Below, piece after piece: positions 1,087-26,521 of a DNA stretch of 32,000 bases (its first letter is position 1; every line of letters begins with the position of its first letter). Position numbers and translations under genes: made by a program. The notes under the pieces are model-generated. The model made no database searches, was not told the origin of the DNA, and saw only the letters and a program-made list of their open reading frames with translations. The stretch comes from Trichlorobacter lovleyi SZ (GTDB lineage: Bacteria > Desulfobacterota > Desulfuromonadia > Geobacterales > Pseudopelobacteraceae): NCBI RefSeq assembly GCF_000020385.1, contig NC_010814.1, forward strand, positions 3,600,001 through 3,632,000. The letters are read 5' to 3'.

Positions 1087-1097
1087 TATGGGGCAAA

Positions 1098-10167: not shown

Positions 10168-10190
10168 GCACATATAAGAGAGAGTTCAAT

Positions 10191-11102
10191 ATGACCATCA
10201 TTGATGAAATCCTTGAAAGTAACTACTTCACCGACAACCCTCCGGTACTGCTCGATATCGGGGCCTCCACTGCGATCCACCCCAAATGGCAGCCGTTGGC
10301 CAGGCACTCGATCTGTATCGCCTTTGATGCCGATGACCGGGAGATCGGTTATGCGGCCACCGCTTCAAAGGGGTATAAGAAACTGCACCTGTTCAACAGT
10401 CTGGTAAGCGACGGGGCAGCTGCGGAGGCAGATTTCTTCCTGACCAGGTTCCCCCTCTGCTCAAGCCTGCTTGAGCCGGACCAGCAGAGCCTTGCACAGT
10501 ATAATTTCGGCGACCTGTTTGAGCTGGACAAGGTCGTCCGGCTGAAAACCGTGCAACTGAGAGAGGCCCTCAAAGCGGCAGGTGTGGCCAAAGTAGACTG
10601 GTTCAAGACCGACTCCCAGGGCACTGACCTGCGCCTGTTCAACAGCCTGGGCAACAACCTGATCAAACAGACGCTGGTGGCGGAATTTGAACCGGGTATC
10701 GTTGACGCCTACAGGGGGGAGGATAAACTGCACGACCTGATGAGGTTTATGGACAGCCAGCCTTTCTGGATGAACGACATGCATATCAAGGGGACCCAGC
10801 GGATCAGTCAGGAGGCCCTGCGCAGATGTTTTCAGGATCATACCGGGCAGCTCAGGGAGGGCATGTCGCTCAAGACCTCCCCCTGCTGGAGCGAAGTCTC
10901 CTATTTTAACAGTTTTGGGCCTGAAGCCGACTGGCTGAACCAGCGGGATTACCTGCTGGGCTGGATATTTGCCCTGATTGAAGGGCAGTATGGTTTCGGG
11001 CTGGACATTGCGCTGCAAGGCGGAAAACGATTCGGGACAGCGGTCTTTGAACAGCTGGCCGAATGCTCCGTTGAACTGCTGACCAGAGACAGCTCGAGAT
11101 AG
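10191..11102 (+). CDS. FkbM-family-like SAM-dependent methyltransferase (tentative)
   Basis: 303-aa ORF with a purine-rich stretch (aagagagag) upstream of the ATG. LLDIGAST resembles the FkbM DIGAN.G motif, and VDWFKTDSQGTDLRLF resembles the FkbM (I/L)K.D.EG.E..(V/L)L motif. Confidence 0.6.
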   Translation: MTIIDEILESNYFTDNPPVLLDIGASTAIHPKWQPLARHSICIAFDADDREIGYAATASKGYKKLHLFNSLVSDGAAAEADFFLTRFPLCSSLLEPDQQSLAQYNFGDLFELDKVVRLKTVQLREALKAAGVAKVDWFKTDSQGTDLRLFNSLGNNLIKQTLVAEFEPGIVDAYRGEDKLHDLMRFMDSQPFWMNDMHIKGTQRISQEALRRCFQDHTGQLREGMSLKTSPCWSEVSYFNSFGPEADWLNQRDYLLGWIFALIEGQYGFGLDIALQGGKRFGTAVFEQLAECSVELLTRDSSR

Positions 11103-11114
11103 AAGGACAACCAC

Positions 11115-12122
11115 ATGGAATCATTCAACAACAAACGGGTATTGATCACGGGCGGCCTCGGTTTCATCGGTTCAAACCTGGCTATCCGCCTGGTGCAACT
11201 GGGGGCCCAGGTCACACTGGTGGACAGCCTGATCCCTGAATACGGCGGTAATCTCTGGAATATTGAACCGGTCAAGGAGCAGGTACGGGTCAATATCTCC
11301 GACGTCCGGGATGAACATGCCATGAAGTACCTGATTCAAGGCCAGGACTTCCTGTTCAACCTGGCCGGCCAGACCAGCCACCTTGATTCAATGCAGAACC
11401 CCTATCCGGACCTTGAGATCAACGCCCGCGCTCAGCTTTCGATCCTTGAGGCCTGCCGCCACCACAATCCCGCCATCAAGCTGGTTTTTGCCAGTACCCG
11501 CCAGATGTACGGTGCCCCCCGCTACCTGCCGGTGGATGAAAAACACCCCCTGGCCCCGGTTGATGTGAACGGCATCAACAAGATGGCCGGAGAGTGGTAC
11601 CACCTGGTATATAACAACGTCTACGGCATCCGGGCCTCGGTGCTGCGCCTGACCAACACCTATGGCCCCCGCATGCGGGTCAAGGATGCCCGCCAGACCT
11701 TTCTGGGTATCTGGATCAGAAATATCCTGACCGGCCAGCCGGTGCTGGTCTTCGGGGATGGCAGACAGGTCCGCGACTTTAATTACGTTGACGATGTGGT
11801 TGAAGCAATGCTGCTCTGCGCGGCATCTGACGCTGCCAACGGCGAGATATTCAATCTGGGTGCGGATGACCCGGCCAACCTGCAGGATACCGCCCAGCTG
11901 CTGGTCCAGGCTGCCGGCCAGGGCAGCTTTGCACTGGTGCCGTTTCCGCCGGACCGCAAGGCGATCGACATTGGCGACTACTACGCCGATTACGGCAAGA
12001 TCAAGGCGACACTGGGCTGGCAACCGGCTGTAGCGCTTCAGGAAGGGCTGCAACGCACCCTGGCCTACTACCGCACCGACGGCGCACACTACTGGGAGGA
12101 GGCAGACCATGCCCGCTCCTGA
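11115..12122 (+). CDS. NAD-dependent sugar-nucleotide epimerase/dehydratase (extended SDR family)
   Basis: 335-aa ORF, RBS aagga 9-13 nt upstream. N-terminal VLITGGLGFIGSNL Rossmann motif, FASTRQMYG, LRLTNTYGPR, VRDFNYVDDVV and LGWQP are typical of the GalE/RmlB/UXS-like fold. The position aligned to the catalytic YxxxK reads NGINK (see findings). Confidence 0.85.
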   Translation: MESFNNKRVLITGGLGFIGSNLAIRLVQLGAQVTLVDSLIPEYGGNLWNIEPVKEQVRVNISDVRDEHAMKYLIQGQDFLFNLAGQTSHLDSMQNPYPDLEINARAQLSILEACRHHNPAIKLVFASTRQMYGAPRYLPVDEKHPLAPVDVNGINKMAGEWYHLVYNNVYGIRASVLRLTNTYGPRMRVKDARQTFLGIWIRNILTGQPVLVFGDGRQVRDFNYVDDVVEAMLLCAASDAANGEIFNLGADDPANLQDTAQLLVQAAGQGSFALVPFPPDRKAIDIGDYYADYGKIKATLGWQPAVALQEGLQRTLAYYRTDGAHYWEEADHARS

Positions 12123-12193
12123 TCTGCTCGCCGCAACCACAGACTGCTGCCCTGAACAGATACCCGCCACCGGCAGTTTCCCGGTCGTACGGC

Positions 12194-13267
12194 ATGAAAG
12201 GTAACCGGGACATGCGCTGGTACTGTACCTACTGTGATCGCAACTATCTGGTCAGGCTCCTTGCCCTGGCGGATTCCCTGACCCGGCATGAGCGGCAACC
12301 GTTTACCATCCTCGTGGTCTGTCTGGACGAGCTGACCCGTACCTTATTGAACCACCTTCAGCTACCCAATATCCGAAGCATCGGCCTGCACGAGCTTGAA
12401 TCCCGTGATCACCAGCTGCGTGAGGCCAGAAATACGCGCAGTCTGGTTGAGTACTACTGGACTCTCACCCCGACCGTGCTGCTGTTTCTTTTTGAACAGC
12501 ATCCGCAGATCGACCGTCTGACCTATCTGGATGCCGACCTGTTCTTCTTCAGCTCGCCGGAGCCGATGTTCTCGGAGGCACCCGATGCCTCCGTGTTAAT
12601 TCACAGCCACCGCTTTGCAAAAAGATATACCATGCTTGAGGCGTACGGCACCTACAACGTGGGGCTACTCAGTTTTGTCAGGAATACCGAGGCGCTGGGC
12701 ATTCTACGCGAGTGGCGTGGACAATGTCTGCACTGGTGTTTTGCCAGCCTGGAGGATGGAAAATTCGGCGACCAGCTCTACCTGAACGATTGGCCGCAAC
12801 GGTTTGCCGGCGTCCATGTGCTGCAGCACCCGGGAGTCGGGGTAGCCCCCTGGAACCAGAACGATGCCAGCCTGGCAACCGCTGCTACAGGAGAACTGCT
12901 GGTGGATGGCGCCCCGCTGATCTTCTACCACTTCCATGCCCTGGAGATATTGTCTCCTGAGGTCTATCTGCCGGCAAAGCTGTTACATTACCGTTTTGAG
13001 CTGCCGGTCCTGCGCCATTGCTACCTTCCCTATGTTCGGACCCTGCAGCAGGAGCTGGCACGATTGGACTCACTGCTACCGGGATCAACCTGCGGCATAG
13101 CGCACCAGACCGGCGCTGTTGCCCACACCCTGCTGGCCACACAATCGAGCGCACTGATCCTGGCCGAGCATCTGCCGGGCTTTTCGCAGAGCCCCCTGGC
13201 TGACGGCTGGGTTGTCGGCAAGGTGCCGGTTGAACTACCTGACGCAGGCACTGTACAAACGGCATGA
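12194..13267 (+). CDS. GT-A fold glycosyltransferase (GT8 / nucleotide-diphospho-sugar transferase-like)
   Basis: 357-aa ORF; an alternative ATG at 12212 has aagg upstream. DxD-type motif YLDADLFFF, YNVGLLSF and FGDQLYLNDW resemble GT8-like retaining transferases. Confidence 0.6.
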   Translation: MKGNRDMRWYCTYCDRNYLVRLLALADSLTRHERQPFTILVVCLDELTRTLLNHLQLPNIRSIGLHELESRDHQLREARNTRSLVEYYWTLTPTVLLFLFEQHPQIDRLTYLDADLFFFSSPEPMFSEAPDASVLIHSHRFAKRYTMLEAYGTYNVGLLSFVRNTEALGILREWRGQCLHWCFASLEDGKFGDQLYLNDWPQRFAGVHVLQHPGVGVAPWNQNDASLATAATGELLVDGAPLIFYHFHALEILSPEVYLPAKLLHYRFELPVLRHCYLPYVRTLQQELARLDSLLPGSTCGIAHQTGAVAHTLLATQSSALILAEHLPGFSQSPLADGWVVGKVPVELPDAGTVQTA

Positions 13268-13280
13268 TGAGGAGCTACCC

Positions 13281-14300
13281 ATGAAGGTTTCCATGCCGCG
13301 AGGAACGGCACATGGCTGGGGGGTCGCCGGTGAGCAGCTGAGCCGTGAGATGGCACTGCTGCCATCGCTGGCCGAGGTGACCCTGCACGGTATCCGCACT
13401 GTGGCTCTCGACCCTTTTGACCCTGCCGCCTGGGACCGCCACAATATCGGTTACTGCTTCTTTGAAGACACGATCACCGTGTTGGAGTACACCCGCCAGG
13501 CTGCAAAGAACTGGGACGTCATCGTGGCCGGCTCCTCGTGGTGCGAGCAGCACCTGAGGATCGGCGGAGTACGCAATACGACCACCATCCTGCAGGGGGT
13601 TGATGCAAGCACCTTCTACCCCGGTCCCAAGCGGAACCTTGCGGACCGGTTCGTGGTCTTTTCCGGCGGCAAGTTTGAGCTGCGTAAAGGGCAGGATCTG
13701 GTGATTGCGGCCATGCGGGTATTTATGGAGCGGCACGCTGATGTGCTGCTTTCCTGTGCCTGGTACAACCAGTGGCCGTTTTCCCTGGCCACCATGGAGC
13801 TGTCCACGCTCATCAACTACCAACACCGTGAAGGTGACTGCCTTGAGATTCTGGCCGAGACCCTGGAGGCCAACGGCATCCCGCTCGACCGGGTACTGCT
13901 GTATCCGCTGCTGGATAACCACCAGATGCGGCAGGTCTACCACAACTCCGACATCGGGCTGTTTCCCAACCGCGGCGAGGGGGGCAACAACCTGGTGATG
14001 TGTGAATACATGGCCTGCGGCCGGACCGTGATCGCCTCGGACATGACCGGCCATGGCGACGTGATCACAGCAGAAAATGCACTGGCCCTGACCTCCTATC
14101 GGCCGTATCACTACCGTCATCATGCTGAGGGGGTCTGGTTTGAGGCATCGGTGGATGAAATCGTGGAGCAGCTGGAATATGCCTACCAGCATCGTCCGGT
14201 TCTGCGTCTGAAAGGGCTGAAGGCCGTTGAGGATATGGCACGCCTGACCTGGCACAGTGCGGCGCAGCAGTTTCATGAACTTGGCAGACGCTATGCCTGA
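13281..14300 (+). CDS. GT-B glycosyltransferase (GT1/GT4-like)
   Basis: The track ORF begins at 13212, overlapping the upstream gene. ATG 13281 has GAGGAG (13269-13274) 6 nt upstream and lies just after the upstream TGA (13265-13267). The C-terminal FPNRGEGGNNLVMCEYMACGRTVIAS matches the GT4 E-x7-E nucleotide-sugar binding region. Confidence 0.75.
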   Translation: MKVSMPRGTAHGWGVAGEQLSREMALLPSLAEVTLHGIRTVALDPFDPAAWDRHNIGYCFFEDTITVLEYTRQAAKNWDVIVAGSSWCEQHLRIGGVRNTTTILQGVDASTFYPGPKRNLADRFVVFSGGKFELRKGQDLVIAAMRVFMERHADVLLSCAWYNQWPFSLATMELSTLINYQHREGDCLEILAETLEANGIPLDRVLLYPLLDNHQMRQVYHNSDIGLFPNRGEGGNNLVMCEYMACGRTVIASDMTGHGDVITAENALALTSYRPYHYRHHAEGVWFEASVDEIVEQLEYAYQHRPVLRLKGLKAVEDMARLTWHSAAQQFHELGRRYA

Positions 14301-14314
14301 TGCTGTTCAGATAC

Positions 14315-16105
14315 TCAGTGTCTGGACCGTTCAGACCAGACCTGCGTAAAGGCCGCCTCAAGATCCCGGGTAAACGCAACCGTATCGCAGATCGGCGATG
14401 CTGCCATCTGCTGCCGCAGACGGCTTCGCAGGGTAGACAGACCGGCCAGATTACTGCCCCAGGCAAGCGCTGTAGCAACATAGGCATCCTCACTGGCAAC
14501 GATCCAGTCTGCCACCCCCGCCTGCGTGAGATGACTCTCGGCATGGCGCACAAAAGGCGGCCGCTTGCCGCGTAACACCAGGGTCGGCACCCCCATCCAG
14601 AGTGCCTCAAGAACGGTCACCCCCCCTTGATAGGGAACCGGATCCAATGCGATATCAACCTGATGATAGGCTGCCAACAGCTCTCTACGGGGGGCATACC
14701 CCTCCAGCAGGATCCGGTCTGACGACACCCCTTCAGCTGCCAGTTTTTCCCAATAAGCGCTGCGGACCAAGGGGTCATCAAATCCCTTTGACTTCAGGAA
14801 CAGCCGCGATCCGGGCAGGGCACGCAGCACCGCCCCCCAGAGCGCAAGGGTGCTGCTGTTTAGCTTTTGCACTGTATTGAATGACCCAAAGGTGATGCAT
14901 CCGGTTGTCAGTGCAGGCAAGCTCCCTACCAGCGGCGCATCCGCAGGGGGTCGGAAGCTGACATAGCCGTGGGGCAGGTAGAGCGGGCGTTCCGTATAGT
15001 ACGGGCGATCTTCCGGCGGTAATGCCACCTGATCGGCAAGGATATGATCCATCGCCTCCAGGCCGGTACTCCCCGGATAGCCTCCCCAGGTGATCTGCAG
15101 CGGGGCCAGTCTCCGGGCAAAGAGGTCAAGGTAATTCCCCCCGGTATGGCCCGCCATGTCTACCGCAATATCGAGCTGCCAGGCGCGGATCTGGCGTACG
15201 ATCTCCAGGCGGTCAGTGCCATGCAGCACAACCCAATGTTCTGCTGAGCGTTTCAGGGCCGCAGTCAGCTCATCCCGCTCTGTATAGGGTGAAAAAACCA
15301 CGATCTCAAAGCGATTCCGGTCATGGGCCGGAATCACCCCTTCCAGAAAATAACCCACGGGATGGGCGTACAGATCGGCAGAGAGATAGCCGATCCTGAT
15401 CCGCTTACGTGTACCAGGGCTCAAGGGTGGCGCCGGTGCTGTCTCAATCCGGCATGTTTCCTCAAACCGGCGATGCATGCCGGCGATGAATTCACCGCTT
15501 AGACTATGGAGCTGTTTTGCCACCCTGCTGATCCGCACGGCCAGTCCCGGAACTGCTGCACACATGTCCAGTTCCCGGGCAACAACCTGCGGCGCAATGG
15601 TACGAACCATCAGCAAGGTATAGAGCAAATTACTGACAGTGGCCCGGGCGTGCCGGTCAAGCTCCACTGAGAGGCCATACCAGAGCAGGGCCGCTTCTGC
15701 CTCACCGGCCATGACCAGGGCATTCCCCAGACCGGACAACAATCCGGGATTGACAGGGTCGGCAGCAACCGACCGGCGCAGGGCCGTCACGGCAGCAACA
15801 TACCGTTTGCCCTGCTCCAGCATCCTGGCATAGCCGAGCGCCCCGTTTGCATAGCCCGGCATCTCCTCAAACAGACCACGGTACGCCGTCTCAGCCTCAG
15901 CATAACGGCCAAGCTTTTCAAACAGCCAGGCACAGTTGTTTTGCAGGGTATATTCGTGCGGACAGGCAGCAAGCAGCTCCTGAAAAATGTCCAGAGCCTG
16001 CTGATAGTTGCCGCTGGAGACGAGGGAGGTCGCCTGGGCAAAACGTTTCTCAAGCAGGGCTGCTGCCCCTGCAAACAGGGGAGAGCAAGAATCGCTTGCA
16101 TTCAC
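14315..16105 (-). CDS. TPR-repeat protein with C-terminal GT41 (OGT / SPINDLY-type) glycosyltransferase domain; candidate flagellin glycosyltransferase (FlmG-like architecture)
   Basis: The track ORF starts at GTG 16123. The in-frame GTG at 16105 is preceded by AAGGAG plus 8 nt and makes a GTGA overlap with the upstream stop, so I prefer it. The N-terminal ~230 aa are TPR-like. The C-terminal half carries IRIGYLSADLYAHPVGYF, DMAGHTGGN, APLQITWGGYPGSTGL, ITFGSFN and VDIALDPVPYQGGVTVLEALWMGVPTL, typical of COG3914/GT41. Confidence 0.8.
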   Translation of the reverse strand: MNASDSCSPLFAGAAALLEKRFAQATSLVSSGNYQQALDIFQELLAACPHEYTLQNNCAWLFEKLGRYAEAETAYRGLFEEMPGYANGALGYARMLEQGKRYVAAVTALRRSVAADPVNPGLLSGLGNALVMAGEAEAALLWYGLSVELDRHARATVSNLLYTLLMVRTIAPQVVARELDMCAAVPGLAVRISRVAKQLHSLSGEFIAGMHRRFEETCRIETAPAPPLSPGTRKRIRIGYLSADLYAHPVGYFLEGVIPAHDRNRFEIVVFSPYTERDELTAALKRSAEHWVVLHGTDRLEIVRQIRAWQLDIAVDMAGHTGGNYLDLFARRLAPLQITWGGYPGSTGLEAMDHILADQVALPPEDRPYYTERPLYLPHGYVSFRPPADAPLVGSLPALTTGCITFGSFNTVQKLNSSTLALWGAVLRALPGSRLFLKSKGFDDPLVRSAYWEKLAAEGVSSDRILLEGYAPRRELLAAYHQVDIALDPVPYQGGVTVLEALWMGVPTLVLRGKRPPFVRHAESHLTQAGVADWIVASEDAYVATALAWGSNLAGLSTLRSRLRQQMAASPICDTVAFTRDLEAAFTQVWSERSRH

Positions 16106-18105
16106 CGGCTGTTCTCCTTGCACCAGCGTTGCCAGATCTGACGGTAGACTCCCTCCAGATGGCAGGTGAAGGTACTATTATCAGCAAGGGGCGAAGCCAG
16201 CAGCCGGTCCCGCAAAGAGCTCCTTAGCGCTGCCAAACGGACGGTGTCAGCGGCAAGGGCAACGGCAAGAGAACAATACTCTTCCGGCGAATTACCAATC
16301 AGTTCAGGCAGTCCAACGCTGTGCAGCAGACTGACGCCGACCCGCGAAACATGGCTGTCGCCAGCCCTGGTCACCACCGGCACCCCCATACAGAGCGCTT
16401 CACAGGTAGTGGTGGTACCATGATAGGGAAAGGTATCCAATGCAATATCAATGGTATGGTACCCCTCAAGGTTTTCCACCACGGACCGGGCATGCCCCAA
16501 TACAGAAATCCGCTCCGGAGCAACCTGATGCCGCAGGAAGAGCGGGGCAATATCACGCACAAAACGATCGTGGGAAAGCCCCCTGGCCCTGAAAACAAGG
16601 TGGGAATCAGGAACTTTGGCAAGTATCCGTGCCCAAAGGTCAAGGATGTCAGGCGTCACTTTCTTGAAGTTACTGAAAGAGCCAAAGGTGACATACCCGT
16701 TTGTCTGACAAGGCAATGATCCCACAGCCGGAAAATCAGCTCCGGGACGATAGCAGAGAAAGCTGTCCGGCAGACGGATCAGCTCTTCGGTGTGAAACGG
16801 ATCGGTCACGCCCGGAGGGTCGGCCCAGGCATCACTGATCCGGTAATCCATCTCCATCAGACCGGTACTGTTTGGATAGCCGATCCAGCTGACCTGCAGC
16901 GGTGCCGCCCGCCCGGCAAACAACGGCAGGCGGTTCAGGGCGGTATGCCCTGCCAGATCCACCAGTACGTCAATCTGATCCTGCAGAAGCAGTTCCTGCA
17001 CCGACGCATCATCCATTGCCGAACAATCACGCCAGATCACGTGGTGCTGTTCTTTCAGCTGGCGTGTCACAACATCGGGCTTTTTAACATCCGAGTAGCA
17101 ATAGACTGTTACCTGAGCTGGATCGTGAGCAGCCAGAACCGGCTGGAGAAAGAATACGACGGCATGAATCTTCAGGTCGGGAGAGAGGTAGGCAACCCTG
17201 ATCGGGCGGTCAGGATCAGGATCGTTGGCAAAATGTTTCATTGCCACAGGCTCAAAATACTGTTGGCCCCAGTTTTTATGCTCTGCAGCTATGGCTGCTG
17301 CCGACCAGTTGGCTGAATAATGCAACATAAACAGACGTGTGCTGGCCAAGGCACGCTTCTGGAAGAGATGGTTTGAACTCGCAATGGCCAGGTCAAAGCA
17401 GGCAATCGCATCATCAACCATCCAGAGCTCACTCAGGCAATTGGCAGTGCTGCCAAGCAGTTCGGCCCGTTCATCCGGCCTTACAAGCTCCAGCACCCGC
17501 TGATAGCAGGCCAGAGACTCCTCGAACCGGAACATCTTCCCGTACACTATTGCCAGATTCCCGATCAAGGCAACATTGTCTGAATCAAGGTGAAGACCAT
17601 GGCGGCAGGAGTGGAGCGCTCCATCATTGTCATCGCTTGCCAGACAGACGGCTGTCAGGTTGATCCACGAATTGAGATGCTGCGGATCAATCGCAAGCGC
17701 CTGCTCAAACGCATGCCTGGCCGGCTCCATGCGCTCGAGCCGCTGCAACAGGACCCCTCGGTTGTAATAAAGGTTTACGGTTGTTTCACCAAGTGCCTCA
17801 GCTTCGTCAAAAGCGGCCAACGCCTCTTCAAAGCACCCCAGTTCCTGCAGAGCCAGTGCCAGGTTTATCCGTAAAAAGCCAATCTCAAGAGCCAGATTAC
17901 AGGCCTGCCGGTACAATATGGCTGCCTCATCCCAGGAGCCTGTGGCATACATGATCGTTGCCAGCATGAAGGTAGCCTCAAGGTTACCACTGTCCAGCTG
18001 CAGGATTCTGCGGCAGATCAGCGCTGCTTCTTCATGGAATCCCTGACGGTTCAGGGTCTCTGCTTGATCAAGCGAACACAGTATATCCGGTTGCATCTGC
18101 TCCAC
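16102..18105 (-). CDS. TPR-repeat protein with C-terminal GT41 (OGT / SPINDLY-type) glycosyltransferase domain; paralog of 14315..16105
   Basis: 667-aa ORF starting at GTG 18105, with GGAGG (18116-18120, minus strand) about 10 nt upstream. The N-terminal ~300 aa are TPRs. The C-terminal half has IRVAYLSPDLKIHAVVFF, DLAGHTALN, APLQVSWIGYPNSTGL, VTFGSFS and IDIALDTFPYHGTTTTCEALCMGVPVV, collinear with the downstream paralog. Confidence 0.8.
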   Translation of the reverse strand: MEQMQPDILCSLDQAETLNRQGFHEEAALICRRILQLDSGNLEATFMLATIMYATGSWDEAAILYRQACNLALEIGFLRINLALALQELGCFEEALAAFDEAEALGETTVNLYYNRGVLLQRLERMEPARHAFEQALAIDPQHLNSWINLTAVCLASDDNDGALHSCRHGLHLDSDNVALIGNLAIVYGKMFRFEESLACYQRVLELVRPDERAELLGSTANCLSELWMVDDAIACFDLAIASSNHLFQKRALASTRLFMLHYSANWSAAAIAAEHKNWGQQYFEPVAMKHFANDPDPDRPIRVAYLSPDLKIHAVVFFLQPVLAAHDPAQVTVYCYSDVKKPDVVTRQLKEQHHVIWRDCSAMDDASVQELLLQDQIDVLVDLAGHTALNRLPLFAGRAAPLQVSWIGYPNSTGLMEMDYRISDAWADPPGVTDPFHTEELIRLPDSFLCYRPGADFPAVGSLPCQTNGYVTFGSFSNFKKVTPDILDLWARILAKVPDSHLVFRARGLSHDRFVRDIAPLFLRHQVAPERISVLGHARSVVENLEGYHTIDIALDTFPYHGTTTTCEALCMGVPVVTRAGDSHVSRVGVSLLHSVGLPELIGNSPEEYCSLAVALAADTVRLAALRSSLRDRLLASPLADNSTFTCHLEGVYRQIWQRWCKENSR

Positions 18106-18181
18106 GTATCACGCACCTCCATCAGATTACATGTTTTAGCATGTGCCGGCACAGGACGCCATGCCCAAGAAGCATGAAATA

Positions 18182-18218
18182 TTTTTTACTCAATAGACAA
18201 GAGTTCAACGCCGAATAA
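18182..18218 (+). promoter_or_regulatory. Sigma-28 (FliA)-like promoter of flagellin gene 1
   Basis: TTTTTTACTCAA-N16-GCCGAATAA. TCAA at 18190-18193 is the -35-like element and GCCGA at 18210-18214 is the -10-like element. Compare the consensus TAAA-N15-GCCGATAA. The same 12-mer and the same 16-nt spacing recur upstream of flagellin 2. Confidence 0.55.
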
Positions 18219-18313
18219 GATGAGTAACGACACAACATGGGCTGGTCCTCTTGAAGGAAGCCCACGGCACACCGACCGACTGACGTGTTCCGTCCAAACC
18301 CAAGGAGGCATTA

Positions 18314-19141
18314 ATGGCTATCGGCGATATTTCGCTCACGTCCGGTATGCGGAGCAACCTGCTTTCACTGCAAGGGACCGCAAAATCAATCGACCAGACC
18401 CAAAACCGGCTTTCAAGCGGCAAACGGGTAAACACACCACTGGACAATCCGACCAACTACTTTGCAGCCCAAGGGCACGTAGAACGCGCCTCTGACCTGG
18501 CTGTACGCAAAGATGGCATGGCAGAGGCGATCCAGATGGTCAAGGCAGCCGACACCGGCATCAAGGGAATCACCTCACTGATCGAATCAGCCAAAGGGGT
18601 GGCCACGGCAGCGCTTGCCACCAGTGACACAAATGAACGTTCAACCTATTCTGCCACTTTTAACACCCTGCTCAATCAGGTCTCCATGATGGCCAGCGAC
18701 TCCGGCTATCGCGGTATCAACCTGCTGACCAACGGTTCACAAACCGTTGAATTCGGACAGCGCACCAATGCGTCCACCCTGCAGATCACCGGTTTCAACG
18801 CCACTGCTGCCGGTCTGACCATGCAATCGGCCGTTGCCACGGCCTGGTCTGCATCAGGTAATTCAGCCATCAACTCATCCTCTTCCGAGCTTGAGTCCGC
18901 CCTGAGCTTTCTGCGTACCAAATCTTCAGCCCTGTCGGCTAACCTGAGTGCGGTAACCACCCGTCAGGACTTCACCAACTCCATGATTAACAATCTGCAG
19001 ACCGGTGCTGATAACCTGACCCTGGCCGATACCAACGAAGAAGGCGCCAACATGCTGATGCTACAGACCCGTCAGAACCTTGGCATTACCTCTTTGAGCA
19101 TGGCCTCGCAAGCGGCCCAGGCGGTTCTGAAGCTATTTTAA
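18314..19141 (+). CDS. fliC: Flagellin (short, 275 aa, Caulobacter/Geobacter-type lacking a large variable domain)
   Basis: RBS AAGGAGG 6 nt upstream of the ATG. Conserved flagellin N-terminus (SLTSGMRSNLLSLQ, RLSSGKRVN.PLDNPTNYF) and C-terminus (TRQDFTNSMINNLQTGADNLTLADTNEEGANMLMLQTRQNLGITSLSMASQAAQAVLKLF). Confidence 0.95.
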   Translation: MAIGDISLTSGMRSNLLSLQGTAKSIDQTQNRLSSGKRVNTPLDNPTNYFAAQGHVERASDLAVRKDGMAEAIQMVKAADTGIKGITSLIESAKGVATAALATSDTNERSTYSATFNTLLNQVSMMASDSGYRGINLLTNGSQTVEFGQRTNASTLQITGFNATAAGLTMQSAVATAWSASGNSAINSSSSELESALSFLRTKSSALSANLSAVTTRQDFTNSMINNLQTGADNLTLADTNEEGANMLMLQTRQNLGITSLSMASQAAQAVLKLF

Positions 19142-19177
19142 CCGCCCCATAAAAACAGGATAACAAATATTTTTAAT

Positions 19178-19215
19178 TTTTTTACTCAAGGAGTTGCGCC
19201 TGCTGTCCGATGAAG
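19178..19215 (+). promoter_or_regulatory. Sigma-28 (FliA)-like promoter of flagellin gene 2
   Basis: TTTTTTTACTCAA-N16-TCCGATGAA. TCAA at 19187-19190 and TCCGA at 19207-19211. Same architecture as the promoter at 18182-18218. Confidence 0.55.
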
Positions 19216-19276
19216 TATACTAAGTGGCAACAAAGCGGCAAGAATGCCGTGATAAAATCCAGAAAGGAGCATCACC

Positions 19277-20104
19277 ATGGCTATCAACGACATCTCCCTC
19301 ACCTCCGGCATGAGGAGCAACCTGCTTTCACTGCAAGGCACCTCAAAACTGATTGACCAGACCCAGACCCGCCTCTCTTCAGGCAAAAAGGTTAACACCC
19401 CGCTGGATAACCCGACCAACTATTTTGCAGCACAAGGACATATGGAGCGGGCTGCTGACCTTTCCGTACGTAAAGACGGTATGGCTGAAGCAATTTCCAT
19501 GGTTAAGGCCGCCGATACCGGTATCAAGGCCATTACCTCCCTGATTGAAGCCGCAAAAGGTGTCGCCGGTGCTGCATTGGCAACCAGTGACGCTGCTGAG
19601 CGTTCCACCTACACCACCACCTTCAACACCCTGCTCAGCCAGGTATCGCAGCTTGCTTCCGACTCCGGCTACCGGGGCACCAACCTGCTGACTGCCGGTT
19701 CACAAACCGTTGAATTCGGTCAGCGGACCAACGCTGCTACCCTGCAGATCAGCGGCTTCAGCGCTACTGCAACCGGCCTGACCATCCAGTCTGCTGTTGC
19801 AACTGCCTGGTCAGCATCAGGTAACTCAGCCATCAACTCATCCTCTTCCGAGCTTGAGTCCGCACTGAGCTTCCTGCGTGCCAAGTCTTCATCGCTGTCT
19901 GCAAACCTGAGCGTTGTTACCACCCGTCAGGACTTCACCAACTCCATGATCAACACCCTGCAGACCGGTGCTGACAACCTGACCCTGGCCGATACCAACG
20001 AAGAAGGCGCTAACATGCTGATGCTGCAGACCCGTCAGAACCTGGGCATCACCTCCTTGAGCATGGCTTCCCAGTCAGCTCAGGCAGTTCTGAGACTGTT
20101 CTAA
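19277..20104 (+). CDS. fliC: Flagellin (275 aa), tandem paralog of 18314..19141
   Basis: RBS AAAGGAG upstream. About 32 substitutions out of 275 aa versus the upstream copy by my hand alignment. Same conserved flagellin termini. Confidence 0.95.
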   Translation: MAINDISLTSGMRSNLLSLQGTSKLIDQTQTRLSSGKKVNTPLDNPTNYFAAQGHMERAADLSVRKDGMAEAISMVKAADTGIKAITSLIEAAKGVAGAALATSDAAERSTYTTTFNTLLSQVSQLASDSGYRGTNLLTAGSQTVEFGQRTNAATLQISGFSATATGLTIQSAVATAWSASGNSAINSSSSELESALSFLRAKSSSLSANLSVVTTRQDFTNSMINTLQTGADNLTLADTNEEGANMLMLQTRQNLGITSLSMASQSAQAVLRLF

Positions 20105-20209: not shown

Positions 20210-20854
20210 ATGGAAGTTCAGACAAGCAACGGAGTCAATACTGCGTATCTTTCAGTGCAGCAGACGACGAGCCAGAAGCAGGCCCAGCAATCACAGCAGA
20301 CACAAACAGCTGAGACACAACAGAATACGCCGGACAGCATGGCGCTTAATCCTGCGGCCCAACCGGCAGATCAGGTCAAGCTTTCTTCTTCGGTTACGGT
20401 GAAAAACCTTGACACGGTCAAAGCGATTGAACAGATGCACACCCGCATGAACCAACTGGTAAAAGGAACACGCGAGACGAATGAGGCCTTAAACAAGGCT
20501 GCCGAGCAGGTTAACTTCATGCAGGGCAACCTTACCAGCATCATCAAGAATTTCCCGCCTTTTCCCATTGACAGCAAAGAGCGCCAAGAGCTCCTGATGA
20601 GCTACACCTCAATCCGTCAGGAAATGATGAAAATGACTATACCGCAACCGCCACCGCCAATGTATGAGCAGGTCAAACACGAGTGGGACAAGACGGTGGG
20701 GCAGAATGGCCAGATGCTCTCCAGCGCCGTACCGGCGCTTGAGACAACCAGTAGTGACACCCAGGTAAACGAGGCGGCCGTCCAGCTTGAAAATGCCAGC
20801 GCCGGTCTTGCAAACCTGAGTTCGAGTGTCACAAAGGCGCTGATCGGCGGTTAA
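20210..20854 (+). CDS. Hypothetical protein, flagellar-locus associated (Q/T/S-rich N-terminus; no family recognised)
   Basis: 214-aa ORF with RBS AAGGGAG 7 nt upstream, located immediately after the flagellin terminator. Its stop lies 4 nt before the flbT ATG. I found no FlaF, FlaG or FlgM signature motifs. Confidence 0.7.
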   Translation: MEVQTSNGVNTAYLSVQQTTSQKQAQQSQQTQTAETQQNTPDSMALNPAAQPADQVKLSSSVTVKNLDTVKAIEQMHTRMNQLVKGTRETNEALNKAAEQVNFMQGNLTSIIKNFPPFPIDSKERQELLMSYTSIRQEMMKMTIPQPPPPMYEQVKHEWDKTVGQNGQMLSSAVPALETTSSDTQVNEAAVQLENASAGLANLSSSVTKALIGG

Positions 20855-20858
20855 CCCC

Positions 20859-21278
20859 ATGTCACTAAAAATACGTTTAAAACCACTGGAAAAGATGCTG
20901 ATCGGTAACGCAGTGATTACCAACGGGGACAGAACCACCGAGTTTTTCATTGAAAACAAGGTGCCGATCCTGCGCGAAAAAGAGCTTATGAAAGAAGACG
21001 CCGCCTCGACGCCGGGGCGGCGAATCTACTTTCTGGTTCAGCTGATGTACGTCGATGAAGAGAATTTTGAAACCTATCATAATCAGTTTTGGGAGATTGT
21101 GCGTCAGGTGATTCTGGCAGCTCCGAGCACGACACCGATTATCACCGATATTTGCCATGAGATCATGAACCGCCGCTACTATCAGGCCCTGAAGGAGGCA
21201 CGCCACCTGGTGGATTACGAGCAGGAACTGGTTGATTCCGCAACAGTTCCTGAAGCTGAGGCATCCGCAATGGCCTGA
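20859..21278 (+). CDS. flbT: Flagellar biosynthesis repressor FlbT (post-transcriptional regulator of flagellin synthesis)
   Basis: 139 aa. MSLKIRLKPLEKMLIGNAVITNGDRTTEFFIENKVPILREKELM....TPGRRIYFLVQLMY...YYQALKEARHLVDYEQEL is collinear with the FlbT family as I recall it from Caulobacter (MPLKLSLKPGEKFVLNGAVVQNGDR...LREKDIM...TP.R.IYF...MMY). Confidence 0.85.
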   Translation: MSLKIRLKPLEKMLIGNAVITNGDRTTEFFIENKVPILREKELMKEDAASTPGRRIYFLVQLMYVDEENFETYHNQFWEIVRQVILAAPSTTPIITDICHEIMNRRYYQALKEARHLVDYEQELVDSATVPEAEASAMA

Positions 21279-24200
21279 GCAACGGCTGCAAGCTCCGGGG
21301 AGTTCCCCTGCTGTTGCAACAGGCTGCACCGCACACCACAGAACAGCTGCCTGCAATCCGTTCCGGCTGCCCGTAACTGGCGTAGCAGCTGCCGCCCTTC
21401 TGCCGGATTACCGATACGATAGAGCGCCAGAACGGCAAGTCCCAGCAATACCGGATTGCCGGGACAGCACTGCTGAGCCTGCATCGCGTACCGATACGCC
21501 TCATCTCCCGTATACAGGCAGGTTTCACAGATCGTCTTGTTAACCAGTGCATCGGTAAAGGCTGGATCAATGGCCAGCGCATGCGTGCTGGCATCCACGG
21601 CCTCCCGCAGCTTTCCCTGACGCAATAGCACATACCCCAGATTGAACCATCCTTTTGCTAAATCCGGCTGTTGACTGAGCAGCCTGATCCAAAGCTGTTC
21701 GGCAGTTACGTACTGCTCCAGTTCTGCAGCCTGTACCGCCAGCTCATAGAGGGCCTTGGGATCATCCGGCTGCTCTGCAAGTTTTTTTAATCCCAATGCC
21801 AGGTACTGTTCCTGTTTTGTCTTGTTTTTCTGTTGTTGCAGGGTTCCATAGTGGTGTACCGGCACCGGATGCTGTACCACGGAAAGCCCGGCCTGTTGCG
21901 CGGTTTCCTCAACCATTTCATGGATGGCTCCCCTGAACCTGATATCATGCTGATTCGGAAAAAGCCGGACCTTGTCGCTGGGCGTCCAGCCCGCCCCGGC
22001 TTCGTTTTCCGGATACTCGCCACGACACGCTACAAATCCCTCCAGCCCTGTGCTGAGCGTATAGTTACGGGTCGTCAGACTATATGACTGCCTTGGCGAT
22101 GCTGCAGCCAAAACATCTCTGAAGAGCTGATAATCCCGTACCGAGATCTGTTCATCGGCATCCATCACCAAAATCCAGTCAGCAGTGGCCAGCTCGATTG
22201 AGCGGTTCCTGGCCGCTGAAAAATCATGCTGCCACGCCTGATCCACAACCAGGGCGCCGAACAGCCCGGCAATCTGCCTGGTTCGGTCGGATGAACCGGT
22301 ATCAACAACTATCATTTCATGCACCAGCGGCTTGCACGACGCCAGACAGCGGGCAAGCTGCCGTTCTTCATCCTTCACAATCATGCACAGCGCAACTGAC
22401 CTGCCCGGTTGGGCAGCTACGTGATATGGTCCACTGAGGTGTCGCTGTTTCATGCCGGCCTGCAAGACGCGGTCATCAGGTCCGAATTGATCCAGAAAGG
22501 CCTCTGCCCAGACAAGGCTAGTTTCGCTGCTGTTCTCAAGATCAGCCAGTTCAATCCGCAACCGGGCCAGTCCACGGCTGTGAGGGTACAACCGAAACGC
22601 CTCATCGGCATACTGCGCCAGGCCTGCTCCACCCTGCCGGCGGCCCAGTTCCAGCAGGGCGTCTTGCAGCTCCAGCCGCCACGGCTCCAGTATAAACCCT
22701 TTCAACAGCAGTGCGTCCGCGTACTCCTCGCATCCCTCAGCCCGGGCCAGCTCCACCTGCTGCAATACCGGACAGGTATGATTCGCGCTCGATATAGCCC
22801 GTTCCAGCAGCTCCGCCAGCAACGGCACACCGGGGTGTTCAATGACGGCCTGACGCAGCAGGACGAGGGCCTCATCAATCCGCTCATCCAGCAGCAGCTG
22901 TTCACCCTGCTCAAGCAGACGGCAGACCGCAATCCGTCTGCCCAGATCCGGATCAGTGACCGGCCTGCTCCATTTTTCATGGAAAAGCGCAGCATTACGA
23001 ACCAGAGCAGGTCTGTAGTCAATCCGGTTGCCCTTGAATGTCATGCTGCCATGATGGTGGATATAGACATCTGAGGCCACAAGGTTCTGACGCCCCGCCA
23101 CTGCGGCCCGTATACAGAAGTCATCATCTTCGTAGTTTCCGCTGCCGAACTGCTCATCCAGCAGGCCGATCTCTTCCATGAGTGTCCGATGAAACAGCAT
23201 GCAGAAACCGACAATCCGGCGGGACCGGACCCGGCGGAAGCGGTTACGGATTCTGAATTCAGCGGCAAAGCCATCCAGCCCGCCGGCAGCGGTATAGTCC
23301 GGCAAGGGCAGCACCTGAATACCGCTGGCGCTGTTGCTCAACGGCCCCGCGATCCCTGTACGGGGATGCGAGATATGGCATTCGAGCAGGCCGGAAAGCC
23401 ACTCAGACGTAACAACCACATCATTATTTAGCAGCACGAGGTACTCACCGCGGGCCAGTTGCAGTCCCTGGTTGCAGCCGGCGGCATAGCCGAGGTTCCG
23501 GTCGTTCAGGATCAGATGACAATCGGCATCAGCAGCGCTCAGCTCCTGCAGCCGTGTCCTGGTACCATCGCTGGAGCCATTATCAACGAAAATCAACTCA
23601 TGGGGTTCTGGGGTGTGCTGCCTGATCGAGGCAAGACATTGTTCGGTACAGGCCCACTGATTAAAGGTCAGGATAATGATGGAAACCAGCGGCCTGCCGT
23701 TGCCGGCAACCGGCATTTCCCAGGCGCGGGGCAGGTTGAGCACCCTGTCAAACCTGACAGTCTGGTTGTAGTCCGGTCTGGAAGGGGTAAACCAGTCAAT
23801 CCCCCACAGTTCCATTGGCGCTGGAACCCGGCCCGCGCCATAGTGGGCTGCCAGAATCCGGTACAAGGCATCGCTGCTTTCCTGTACCAGCCGGCCGGTA
23901 GTCGTAACCGGGGCGCTCTTGAAGCTGTGCTGCCCCTCGTGCCAGACAAAGGTGTCAGCTGCTATCATCAGGCGGTAGCCATGCAGCCGCAGCCGCCAGG
24001 ACAGCTCAAGGTCATCGTTGCCCAGAAAAAGCCGTTCATCCAGCCCGCCCAGCCGATGGAGCAGTTCCAGGCGGATCATCAGACAAAAACCGATCAGCAG
24101 CCTGGTCTTTTCCGACCGGCCCTGATTCATCCGGCACAGCAGTTCCGCTGCCTGCTCGGGGTCAATCCCGTGCGGCAGCTCCCCCTGCCAGTGACAGGCC

Positions 24201-25522
24201 ACTGATTGCCGTCCTGCAGCAAAGTTTGAGACCGGCCCCACCGCGGCAACGGAACGGTCTTCAAAAGGGCGTGCAAGCCGGTCGAGCCAGCCGGCTGTTA
24301 CCACGGTATCAGGGTTCAGCAGCACCACAAAGGGAGTAGCAGCCAGCCTGATCCCCTGGTTGGATGCCACCGAAAACCCACGATTCGACGTATTTTTGAT
24401 CAGTTGCAGCGGCAGTCCGGATTGCAGCTTCTGCACCAGAGCGCAGGTAGTATCCTGCGAAAGGTTATCGACGACAATCACCTGATCACCGGGCCGCATG
24501 GTTCGCGCCAGACTTTCCAGGCAGGCCACAATGGTCTTTGAGGAATTGTAGGTTACCACAACGATGGTTGCCGCCTGATCGCCGGGCTGTGGCGCATCAA
24601 TCCAGCCCAGAATCTGTGCCCCCCATTTTTCAAAAAACAGCGTACGGTTCCGTTGCCAGGCTTGCTCAAAACGTGCCGCCTGTCCGGCTGTCCTCTGCTG
24701 CAAGCCGGTCACAAGCGGATCATCAGCGGCAAGGGTGACCCCCTTCTGTTGCAAAACCCCCAGATAGCGTTCCAGGACCAAGGCTTCGGCCTTCAAGGTA
24801 CCGCCCTGGTGATGGATCAGCGGACTCTCCGGGCAGACCCATGCAAGCAACCCCTGTGACCGGAATGCCAGACAGAGATCATCATCCTCCCAACCGTTTT
24901 CATAGCGTTCATCAAAGGGGCCAAAGCTGAAAAACTGTTCACGGCGCAGCAGTATGCATGCCCCGGTAACTGTCAGAAACGCCCCCCCGCCCTGCACATC
25001 TGACAGGTCGGCCGGTTGCCCATAGCGATAATGTTCGCTGCAGGGCAGCCCATCGGCAGCCACGCTCCAACGCTTGCCACAGTGTTGAATGGTGCCATTG
25101 GGAAACAGGAGACGCGGTGCCACGATACCAATCTCCGGTCGCTGCTGCAGCACCCTGACAAGGGGCTCACACCATCCTGCTGCCTGGGCCTCAATGTCAT
25201 TGTTCATAAACAGCAGCAACGTTCCGCGTGCCTCGCGGGCTCCGCAGTTACAGGCCCGGGCAAAACTGTGCGGTGCCTGGTTGCTGATCAGCCTGATCCG
25301 TAGTTCAGCAGGATAAAGCTGCGACAAGGCCACGACCGTCTCATCACTGGAACCGTCGTCAACAACAATAATCTCAAAAGGGAGAGCAGGAGGAAAGCAG
25401 AGGAGAGACGAAATACAGGCACGGGTCAGATGCCACTGGTTGTGAACCGGAATGATGATGGAAAGCGCTGGGCCAGTCAAGGAGGCATGAGCCGCCTTGA
25501 CTGGTGTTTCTTCAGCAGACAT
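21215..25522 (-). CDS. Giant multidomain glycosyltransferase: four GT2 (GT-A) domains, a helical linker and C-terminal TPR repeats
   Basis: 1435-aa ORF. GT2-1 spans aa ~20-240 (LSIIIPVHNQ, IIVVDDGSSDET, FMNNDIE, ENGWEDDDLC). GT2-2 spans aa ~318-535 (IVVVTYNS, VIVVDNLSQDTT, LLNPDTVV, LGNDDLELSWR). GT2-3 spans aa ~612-830 (VSIIILTFNQ, LIFVDNGSSDGT, LLNNDVVV, GNYEDDDFC). GT2-4 spans aa ~1042-1230 (VALCMIVKDEE, MIVVDTGSSDRT, LVMDADEQI). TPRs span aa ~1240-1400. The ATG lies 5 nt after the stop of the upstream TPR gene. Confidence 0.85.
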   Translation of the reverse strand: MSAEETPVKAAHASLTGPALSIIIPVHNQWHLTRACISSLLCFPPALPFEIIVVDDGSSDETVVALSQLYPAELRIRLISNQAPHSFARACNCGAREARGTLLLFMNNDIEAQAAGWCEPLVRVLQQRPEIGIVAPRLLFPNGTIQHCGKRWSVAADGLPCSEHYRYGQPADLSDVQGGGAFLTVTGACILLRREQFFSFGPFDERYENGWEDDDLCLAFRSQGLLAWVCPESPLIHHQGGTLKAEALVLERYLGVLQQKGVTLAADDPLVTGLQQRTAGQAARFEQAWQRNRTLFFEKWGAQILGWIDAPQPGDQAATIVVVTYNSSKTIVACLESLARTMRPGDQVIVVDNLSQDTTCALVQKLQSGLPLQLIKNTSNRGFSVASNQGIRLAATPFVVLLNPDTVVTAGWLDRLARPFEDRSVAAVGPVSNFAAGRQSVACHWQGELPHGIDPEQAAELLCRMNQGRSEKTRLLIGFCLMIRLELLHRLGGLDERLFLGNDDLELSWRLRLHGYRLMIAADTFVWHEGQHSFKSAPVTTTGRLVQESSDALYRILAAHYGAGRVPAPMELWGIDWFTPSRPDYNQTVRFDRVLNLPRAWEMPVAGNGRPLVSIIILTFNQWACTEQCLASIRQHTPEPHELIFVDNGSSDGTRTRLQELSAADADCHLILNDRNLGYAAGCNQGLQLARGEYLVLLNNDVVVTSEWLSGLLECHISHPRTGIAGPLSNSASGIQVLPLPDYTAAGGLDGFAAEFRIRNRFRRVRSRRIVGFCMLFHRTLMEEIGLLDEQFGSGNYEDDDFCIRAAVAGRQNLVASDVYIHHHGSMTFKGNRIDYRPALVRNAALFHEKWSRPVTDPDLGRRIAVCRLLEQGEQLLLDERIDEALVLLRQAVIEHPGVPLLAELLERAISSANHTCPVLQQVELARAEGCEEYADALLLKGFILEPWRLELQDALLELGRRQGGAGLAQYADEAFRLYPHSRGLARLRIELADLENSSETSLVWAEAFLDQFGPDDRVLQAGMKQRHLSGPYHVAAQPGRSVALCMIVKDEERQLARCLASCKPLVHEMIVVDTGSSDRTRQIAGLFGALVVDQAWQHDFSAARNRSIELATADWILVMDADEQISVRDYQLFRDVLAAASPRQSYSLTTRNYTLSTGLEGFVACRGEYPENEAGAGWTPSDKVRLFPNQHDIRFRGAIHEMVEETAQQAGLSVVQHPVPVHHYGTLQQQKNKTKQEQYLALGLKKLAEQPDDPKALYELAVQAAELEQYVTAEQLWIRLLSQQPDLAKGWFNLGYVLLRQGKLREAVDASTHALAIDPAFTDALVNKTICETCLYTGDEAYRYAMQAQQCCPGNPVLLGLAVLALYRIGNPAEGRQLLRQLRAAGTDCRQLFCGVRCSLLQQQGNSPELAAVAQAIADASASGTVAESTSSCS

Positions 25523-26454: not shown

Positions 26455-26521
26455 ATCTCCTTAGCTCACGATCTAATATTCGAACGAGTAATTCTACCCA
26501 TATCAGTCAAAGATGCAATGA

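Follow-up and report, generated by a model that had tools for sequence, protein, structure and literature searches.

The window analysed here (32,000 nucleotides of contig NC_010814.1 of Trichlorobacter lovleyi SZ) contains two adjacent genes, GT41-A and GT41-B (hereafter A and B), each encoding tetratricopeptide repeats (TPRs) followed by a glycosyltransferase (GT) domain of family GT41, and two flagellin genes that are read in the opposite direction. The A+B pair is best explained as the conserved core of a flagellin glycosylation island in T. lovleyi and its relatives. The features of this core are as follows; lengths are in amino acids (aa) and coordinates count from the first letter of the window.

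16102..18105, minus strand: GT41-A, 667 aa, TPR + GT41 (SPINDLY-like) putative protein glycosyltransferase (list of open reading frames, ORFs); start GTG at 18105, stop TGA at 16102-16104
17377..18084, minus strand: TPR array of A, residues 8-243; 14 helices, ~7 repeats (H8-20 to H230-243; Pfam and AlphaFold2, AF2)
16105..17220, minus strand: GT41 catalytic domain of A, residues ~296-667 (mapped onto SPINDLY)
14315..16105, minus strand: GT41-B, 596 aa, TPR + GT41 putative protein glycosyltransferase (ORF list); start GTG at 16105, stop at 14315-14317
15614..16081, minus strand: TPR array of B, residues 9-164; ~9 helices, ~4-4.5 repeats (H9-30 to H154-164; Pfam and AF2)
14318..15418, minus strand: GT41 catalytic domain of B, residues ~230-596 (residue alignment)
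16102..16119, minus strand: A/B junction, AAGGAG ribosome-binding site and GTGA overlap (read from the sequence)
18106..18313, no strand: divergent intergenic region, 208 bp, with a sigma-28-like -10 element and a conserved block in the 5' untranslated region (UTR)
18314..19141, plus strand: flagellin 1, 275 aa, short alpha-proteobacterial type (PF00669, PF00700), ATG at 18314; presumed acceptor
19277..20104, plus strand: flagellin 2, 275 aa, with its own upstream region; presumed acceptor together with flagellin 1
20210..20854, plus strand: 214-aa protein of no known family, between the flagellins and FlbT
20859..21278, plus strand: FlbT, flagellin translation regulator (PF07378, E 1.6e-45)

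A previous inspection of this DNA (the sequence-only reading) had described the two GT41 genes as coupled by a GTGA overlap at 16102-16105 and as divergent from two flagellin genes 208 bp away, and both statements are borne out. On the minus strand the junction sequence ends in AAGGAGaacagccGGTGAatg, and the TGA of A (16104-16102) shares bases with the GTG at 16105-16103. We take this GTG as the start of B because it has a good ribosome-binding site (AAGGAG-N8-GTGA), the AAGGAG Shine-Dalgarno sequence lying at 16119-16114 within the 3' end of A, 8 nt 5' of the GTG. An alternative upstream GTG at 16123 has no ribosome-binding site, and public gene calls give the 596-aa form of B. The product of A is 100% identical to a protein annotated in T. 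lovleyi SZ (formerly Geobacter lovleyi), and the same gene arrangement is present in several assemblies. The 4-nt overlap is also found in locus L090 and in Geobacter sp. SVR (L008), with a 1-nt overlap in L091 and short gaps in L089 and L007.

Family, fold and active sites

Assignment of both proteins to the GT41/COG3914 family, for which the sequence-only reading had proposed a profile check, is upheld by Pfam, by matches to PDB chains, and by the predicted fold. Both match PF13844 (Glyco_transf_41; A, E 5.6e-44, 150.7 bits; B, E 2.6e-41, 142 bits) and exceed the curated cut-off of 25 bits by more than 100 bits; several TPR families are also matched in each, and the five C-terminal motifs quoted in that reading are all found in both proteins in the A/B alignment. 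Ranked by sequence against the PDB, A is closest to Arabidopsis SPINDLY (SPY; E 5e-111), followed by the Thermobaculum "O-GlcNAc transferase" (OGT; 5DJS) and human OGT, and B is closest to 5djs (E 7.8e-79), followed by SPY (E 2.5e-73). AF2 models built on homologue alignments (mean predicted local distance difference test score 91.3 for A and 91.5 for B) have the TPRs packed on a two-lobe catalytic domain in both proteins. Foldseek places SPINDLY first for each, with template modelling (TM) scores of up to 0.84 for A and of 0.86 for B (root mean square deviation 2.5 Å), and the other solved GT41 structures (TtOGT, human OGT, XcOGT) lower.

The residues D491/H495/K665/Y744/T749 of SPY, whose roles have been described and among which K665 (equivalent to K842 of human OGT) is essential (PMC9715652), correspond to D310/H314/K482/Y561/T566 in A and to D244/H248/K414/Y492/T497 in B, next to a G-T-T-T-T loop at 563-567 in A and a Q-G-G-V-T-V loop at 493-498 in B. 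In our alignments of 33 A-clade and 19 B-clade sequences, these five positions are invariant throughout (33/33 and 19/19), as is E500 of B in its clade. Catalytic competence of both A and B, predicted from residues invariant across the clades, is the best explanation of this pattern. The donor loop itself differs between the two proteins, reading P-Y-H-G-T-T-T-T in A, as in SPINDLY, and P-Y-Q-G-G-V-T-V in B. Because the G-V substitution is fixed in the B clade and the same loop type occurs in many other GT41s, it looks like a distinct subtype and not like decay; with the catalytic residues invariant as well, B as a decayed pseudoenzyme was rejected as unsupported.

Further signature residues set the clades apart (S478, H/N562, and T564-T565 in the A clade; N410, Q493, G495, and V496 in the B clade). 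At the GDP-contact positions of SPY, A keeps T564-T565-T566 and has S478 in place of N661 and N545 in place of H728, while B keeps N410 and T497 and has G495 and V496 in place of T747/T748. The base-stacking histidine (SPY H728/OGT H901) is thus an asparagine in A, and by hand alignment a leucine in B. A tyrosine at the position of SPY Y744 and human OGT C917 has been proposed to exclude GlcNAc (PMC9715652). This tyrosine is present as Y561 in A and Y492 in B and is invariant in both clades, which makes UDP-GlcNAc an unlikely donor for either enzyme; the public annotation as "O-GlcNAc transferase" is probably wrong in detail. As the characterised GT41 enzymes SPINDLY, HMW1C, and cyanobacterial Ogt are protein glycosyltransferases (PMC9715652, PMC9306852), a protein-directed role of A and B is plausible by analogy.

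Two distinct GT41 lineages

The two proteins align end to end with 32% identity over ~598 residues (E 2e-73), and their catalytic domains are 36% identical. In phmmer searches A scores higher against plant SPINDLY than against B, both at full length (375 vs. 241 bits) and with the C-terminal lobe alone (171 vs. 102 bits). The catalytic domain of A is 47% identical to that of a planctomycete GT41, and that of B 44% identical to that of a Magnetospirillum GT41. In a rough neighbour-joining tree A and B fall into separate deep GT41 clades, and the clade of B orthologs is narrow (at least 46% identity, with the next drop to 37%), its members sharing contigs with A orthologs. The description of the genes as twin paralogs, which implies a recent duplication, is at odds with the separate deep clades and the 36% catalytic identity, and the tree, the identities, and the 375 vs. 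241 bits together rule out a recent tandem duplication. Judged by these comparisons, the pair represents two different GT41 lineages whose association is old and conserved.

Fused double TPR-GT41 proteins are found elsewhere. Polypeptides of 1100-1160 aa with two complete GT41 modules occur in P0032, P0035, P0037, P0039, P0079, L093 (10001-14856), and L094, several of them with a separate TPR array before each module, and one is encoded in a flagellar locus of Selenomonas ruminantium beside a third GT41; the gene for a stand-alone TPR protein lies near by. Both halves of the fused proteins are closer to A than to B, so they represent independent duplications and not a Rosetta-stone fusion of A with B. 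They lend weak support to cooperation between A and B and are no proof of an A-B complex.

Conservation of the locus and flagellin copy number

The same gene order is found in the window and in the loci L007, L089, L090, and L091, with GT41-A and GT41-B on one side and, divergently, the flagellin gene(s), the 214-aa gene, and FlbT on the other, followed by a gene for a protein with four GT2 domains and TPRs (4xGT2-TPR). In each of these four related loci an A ortholog is followed by a B-clade ortholog. The divergent flagellin/214-aa/FlbT arrangement is retained down to ~55-65% sequence identity while the neighbouring genes turn over. The GT4/GT8/epimerase cassette of the window, for example, is replaced in L007, L090, and L091 by genes for a 350-aa unknown protein and a ~1220-1575-aa radical-SAM + GT9 giant (for which L090 and L091 have an additional call of a B12-binding domain), plus a pair of GT4 genes, with the GT41 pair unchanged. 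This looks like cassette-type glycan diversification, and it is the pattern expected if the fixed genes (GT41 pair, 4xGT2-TPR) deal with the protein and the variable ones define the sugar. The linkage of the GT41 pair to flagellin, on which the sequence-only reading relied, is well supported by this synteny: with the 214-aa gene and FlbT the pair forms a conserved module, while the sugar genes change.

That reading had further suggested one transferase per flagellin. There are two flagellin genes at the locus in L007 and L091, and only one in L089 and L090, and the latter two contradict the suggestion, as each combines the A+B pair with a single flagellin gene. One flagellin gene and two GT41 genes are likewise found in Geobacter sp. 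SVR, where the second GT41 lies outside the B clade, and in the flagellin locus of Geomonas paludis, and in S. ruminantium a single flagellin gene is followed by the double GT41 and the third GT41. Across these loci, having more flagellin genes thus does not go with having more GT41 modules. In addition, the two flagellins of T. lovleyi are 88% identical, compared to 36% catalytic-domain identity and separate clades for A and B, so that by sequence divergence the flagellin duplication appears far younger than the A/B split.

Flagellin genes, their leaders and the 214-aa protein

Serine and threonine account for 66 of the 275 residues of flagellin 1 and 71 of the 275 of flagellin 2. The two sequences differ at 32 positions, 19 of which alter Ser/Thr status, and share the same central Ser/Thr-rich segment (residues ~168-200). 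Paralog-specific sites on the flagellins are thus possible, although the comparative data argue against dedicated enzymes.

The two elements seen in the divergent region lie on the flagellin side. A sigma-28-like -10 element for flagellin 1, GCCGAATAA, is located at 18210-18218 (plus strand), and in an alignment five related loci share an element of the type TAAAG..GCCGAWAA ahead of their flagellin gene. Downstream of it, the 5' UTR of flagellin 1 contains a block of ~45 nt at 18239-18285 (plus strand; GGCTGGTCCTCTTGAAGGAAGCCCACGGCACACCGACCGACTGACG) that is near-identical in the window, L007, and L091 and absent upstream of flagellin 2, whose leader differs. This block is a candidate for FlbT-type translational control, which would regulate the two flagellins differently. 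A conserved promoter for the GT41 operon was not seen in the six-locus alignment of the region, and scans of it for sigma-70 promoters and terminators gave hits at chance level only.

The 214-aa protein has no Pfam or NCBIfam match. Its gene is found in L007, L008, L040, L048, L089, and L090, and thus in all related Geobacteraceae loci seen, and occupies the slot that FlaF has in Caulobacter. Identity with FlaF was rejected, as no similarity to the Caulobacter protein was found; the 214-aa protein may be an analogue of a flagellin chaperone or regulator.

The surrounding glycosylation island

The 32-kb window as a whole is one large glycosylation island around the flagellin module, with the following additional features.

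1047-10167, plus strand: three giant multidomain transferases (PF13524 fusions), left of the variable cassette
10191..14300, plus strand: variable glycan cassette, convergent on GT41-B; weakly FkbM-like 303-aa protein, nucleoside-diphosphate-sugar 4,6-dehydratase/epimerase, GT8-like protein, GT4
21215..25522, minus strand: 1435-aa protein with four GT2 domains and C-terminal TPRs, conserved in L001, L002, L007, L089, and L090

The 1435-aa 4xGT2-TPR protein is a second candidate flagellin-binding transferase. To its right, the same strand encodes a TPR protein, one GT2, several methyltransferases, and an aminotransferase of the DegT family. The three giants have 1078 aa (PF13524 GT, methyltransferase, and TPR domains), 673 aa (PF13524 + GT2), and 1288 aa (PF13524, SAM-methyltransferase, and B12-binding radical-SAM domains); the fused radical-SAM domain points to a sugar that is C-methylated or modified in some other uncommon way. 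Strain variation affects this side of the island: in L001 an insertion sequence with an rve transposase (~18379-20013) lies between the 303-aa and 1288-aa genes, corresponding to ~10167-10191 of the window, and in L004 (8743-12120) the 1288-aa gene is replaced by genes of 818 aa and 273 aa without radical-SAM domains.

Neither a NeuB/PseI/LegI-type synthase nor a CMP-transferase is present among the ORFs of the window, and a LegC/PseC-like aminotransferase scores under the cut-offs of both families. The G+C content falls to 0.47-0.52 at 26001-31000, compared to 0.54-0.61 in the rest of the window. This stretch holds GT2, methyltransferase, and aminotransferase genes, a 148-aa ORF, and a further methyltransferase gene, suggesting a sugar-modification cassette that was acquired separately. 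The 148-aa ORF (30380-30826, minus strand) lies between the genes for the DegT-family aminotransferase and a 391-aa methyltransferase, a position that would fit a small sugar isomerase or a cupin-type protein.

Proposed roles of A and B

We propose, with a probability of roughly 0.5, that A and B are two non-redundant SPINDLY-type cytoplasmic O-glycosyltransferases that share the flagellin(s) as acceptor but differ in donors and/or sites. Flagellin as the acceptor, a division of labour, and a possible heterodimer are what we infer from the locus. The N-terminal TPR superhelix (~7 repeats in A, ~4.5 in B) would hold unfolded or chaperoned flagellin before export, and the GT-B domain would move a sugar from a nucleotide sugar to Ser/Thr residues of flagellin. 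A and B would share one flagellin substrate, or both flagellins in strains with two copies, and would probably use different sugars and/or Ser/Thr subsets, since their donor-phosphate and sugar-binding loops differ. They may form a heterodimer, as the coupled operon would make both in a fixed ratio. Strain-variable GT2/GT4/GT8, methyltransferase, radical-SAM, and aminotransferase genes would then build and decorate the glycans. Two different first sugars or site-specific recognition, both considered in the sequence-only reading, are compatible with this evidence, in contrast to the paralog-specific recognition suggested alongside them, which L089 and L090 contradict. A stricter version, in which A and B form an obligate heterodimer that transfers two different small sugars (such as 6-deoxyhexoses, maybe from GDP- or dTDP-sugars) to flagellin, is improbable.

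Several points weigh against this proposal. The roles of A and B are predicted from sequence and models, the donor sugars are not readable from the sequence, and use of GDP-fucose cannot be inferred. The flagellin copy numbers given above count genes within the retrieved loci only. The second GT41 slot is exchangeable, because the partner of A in Geobacter sp. SVR is not a B-clade ortholog, and a literature search for flagellin glycosylation in Geobacter or Trichlorobacter found no report. The 1435-aa GT2+TPR protein could be the true priming enzyme, by analogy with GmaR (PMC9638930). GT41 genes are also far from specific to flagellar loci. We surveyed 80 loci with A-like GT41 genes, using one genome per species. 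At least two GT41 ORFs within 10 kb are present in 35 of these loci and directly adjacent same-strand GT41 genes in 24, showing that tandem arrangement is a common feature of the family as a whole. A flagellin gene within 10 kb was found in only 7 of the 80 (from Geobacteraceae, Bryobacterales, a gammaproteobacterium, and an unclassified metagenome-assembled genome), leaving 73 loci with no flagellin nearby. As tandem GT41s without flagellin are common (also in L094 and L095), pairing alone is not specific to flagella. Even coupled pairs are not restricted to flagellar loci: L095 (8001-11863) encodes a TPR-GT41 pair of 693 + 594 aa with a 4-nt overlap in a deoxy-amino-sugar cluster, followed by more TPR-rich genes, with no flagellin within 8 kb.

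The 73 flagellin-free loci, together with the tandem GT41s in the sugar clusters of L095 and L094 and a cyanobacterial TPR-GT41 that works on pilin (PMC9306852), would fit enzymes that modify other cytoplasmic or surface proteins, such as pilins or, as with OGT and SPY, a wide range of targets, their location here reflecting a shared sugar supply or chance. We regard such a non-flagellin acceptor as doubtful, given that the divergent flagellin/214-aa/FlbT layout persists to ~55-65% identity despite the turnover of neighbours, that linkage of GT41 and flagellin genes arises independently in Bryobacterales, Gammaproteobacteria, and Selenomonas, and that the precedents adjoin the gene of their substrate (Ogt and pilA, PMC9306852; FlmG and the flagellins in the Caulobacter vibrioides locus). 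Rather unlikely, too, is a sequential scheme in which one GT41 or the 4xGT2-TPR giant primes Ser/Thr and the other GT41 extends the glycan or needs glycosylated flagellin. It would account for the many elongating-type GTs and the conserved GT2+TPR protein of the island, and Fgt1 and Fgt2 of Pseudomonas syringae reportedly act sequentially. Moreover, the GT41 enzyme ApHMW1C makes both Asn-Glc and Glc-Glc bonds (PMC9715652), and GmaR, a non-GT41 GT with TPRs, primes flagellin (PMC9638930). Yet A and B each keep a full TPR array, the module that binds the substrate protein in OGT, SPY, and FlmG, both retain the acceptor-side residues of SPY, and the characterised O-linking GT41s modify protein directly.

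An assignment of A to one flagellin paralog and B to the other would match the two GT41s and two flagellins of the window, L007, and L091, the altered Ser/Thr status at 19 of the 32 flagellin differences, and the different 5' UTRs of the two genes. It is nevertheless very unlikely, as the A + B-clade pair of L089 and L090 is accompanied by just one flagellin gene at the locus, Geobacter sp. SVR, Geomonas, and Selenomonas combine two to three GT41 modules with one flagellin, a recent flagellin duplication (88%) contrasts with an ancient A/B split (36%, separate clades), and the Ser/Thr-rich segment ~168-200 is the same in both copies. It is even harder to see B as a non-catalytic scaffold or adaptor delivering flagellin to A, much as the bridging protein GlfM serves Maf-2, and we give this extremely little weight. 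B does carry Gly and Val at the positions of SPY T747 and T748, where T748A strongly lowers SPY activity (PMC9715652), its TPR array is shorter, and an adaptor-dependent flagellin GT system is known (bioRxiv 10.1101/2023.12.03.569772). However, no B-clade member, even at 46% identity, departs from K414, D244, H248, Y492, T497, or E500, the G-[VL] loop is present in a large share of other GT41s, and both lobes of the active-site fold are intact in the model of B.

Homologues of OGT and SPINDLY abound in bacteria, mostly without an assigned natural substrate; the "OGTs" of Xanthomonas and Thermobaculum, the two bacterial ones with solved structures, show at most slight O-GlcNAc activity and lack a known native target (PMC9715652). 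The T. lovleyi locus nominates Ser/Thr-rich flagellin as a concrete acceptor for bacterial SPINDLY-like enzymes, and if the heterodimer version were true, this would be the first defined native substrate for such homologues. The system is a predicted variant of known flagellin glycosylation systems, and the practical payoff is modest, with possible protein-glycosylation tools and a better reading of environmental flagellin glycosylation islands.

Comparison with known systems

SPINDLY (PDB 7Y4I, 8DTF) is the closest PDB sequence for A and the top fold match for both proteins. It shares with them N-terminal TPRs followed by a GT41 domain without the metazoan insert, and the conserved D491, H495, K665, and Y744. 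Its P-Y-x-G-T-T-T-T loop is kept in A and not in B, which has G-G-V-T-V, and its base-stacking His728 is Asn in A. SPINDLY has 11 TPRs, uses GDP-fucose, and modifies hundreds of nuclear and cytosolic targets, whereas A and B have ~7 and ~4.5 TPRs and are encoded in a bacterial flagellin island. The active form of SPY is a dimer (PMC9715652).

Among bacterial systems, enterobacterial flagellin islands encode GT41/COG3914 proteins beside flagellin (De Maayer & Cowan 2016, PMC4875605). They resemble the T. lovleyi island in their variable sugar-synthesis, methyltransferase, and aminotransferase genes and in that flagellin glycosylation is predicted, as here. Their GT41s are nearly all fused to a methyltransferase, with one to three GTs of one family per island (PMC4875605), and by this description T. 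lovleyi is set apart by two unfused TPR-GT41s of different deep lineages plus GT2, GT4, and GT8 proteins. In Synechococcus elongatus, the TPR-GT41 gene ogt lies next to pilA and is needed to glycosylate PilA, for which the conserved catalytic lysine of Ogt is required (PMC9306852). This is a single gene, however, and its substrate is a type IV pilin instead of flagellin; cyanobacterial GT41s (L012, L013) are only ~38-39% identical to A.

By analogy, the strongest functional precedent for labour divided between two enzymes is the Shewanella pair Maf-1/Maf-2, two paralogous transferases, one with TPRs, that modify different serines of the same flagellins (bioRxiv 10.1101/2023.12.03.569772). Unlike A and B, the Mafs have a GT-A fold (MAF_flag10) and use CMP-pseudaminic acid, Maf-2 needs the adaptor GlfM, and there is no homology to GT41. 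Listeria GmaR is a cytoplasmic flagellin O-GlcNAc transferase that also combines a GT domain with TPRs (PMC9638930), but its GT domain, which is small, N-terminal, and not of family GT41, precedes the TPRs and an anti-repressor domain, and it is nearer to the 4xGT2-TPR protein than to A or B.

The closest parallel in layout is FlmG of Caulobacter, whose TPR domain binds flagellin (PMC7591256). We retrieved the C. vibrioides flagellin locus by a search with the FljK sequence; FlmG is encoded at L092:5922-7712 (minus strand, 596 aa). Like A and B, it joins TPRs and a C-terminal GT-B domain in one soluble protein of ~600 aa (PMC7591256), and its gene is divergent from flbT-flaF-flagellins (L092; PMC7591256), as is the GT41 pair here. 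The TPR part of FlmG aligns with A (hhalign E 3e-15), whereas FlmG has no PF13844 match even at E <= 1, and BLASTP and hhalign align it with A and B in the TPR regions only. FlmG was therefore rejected as a member of GT41, and the kinship that the sequence-only reading implied does not extend to the catalytic domains, which show no homology in these comparisons; by sequence, FlmG is an architectural and positional analogue and not a GT41 relative. All PDB matches of FlmG lie within its first 282 residues, the TPR part. Sequence searches with its C-terminal GT half (residues ~300-596) hit neither a Pfam family at E <= 1 nor a PDB chain; although the enzyme class has been defined by experiment, its catalytic domain still awaits classification. 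Reported to be confined to Caulobacterales (bioRxiv 10.1101/2023.12.03.569772), FlmG is encoded by one gene and uses CMP-nonulosonic acids (pseudaminic/legionaminic); no nonulosonate synthase gene is seen in the T. lovleyi window. If the heterodimer version of our proposal were true, a flagellin-binding TPR module would have been joined to unrelated GT-B domains at least twice (FlmG-type and GT41), in the same genomic position. The comparison with FlmG suggests a rule in which a TPR recognition module is combined with an interchangeable catalytic domain and has a fixed place in the flagellin/FlbT cluster.

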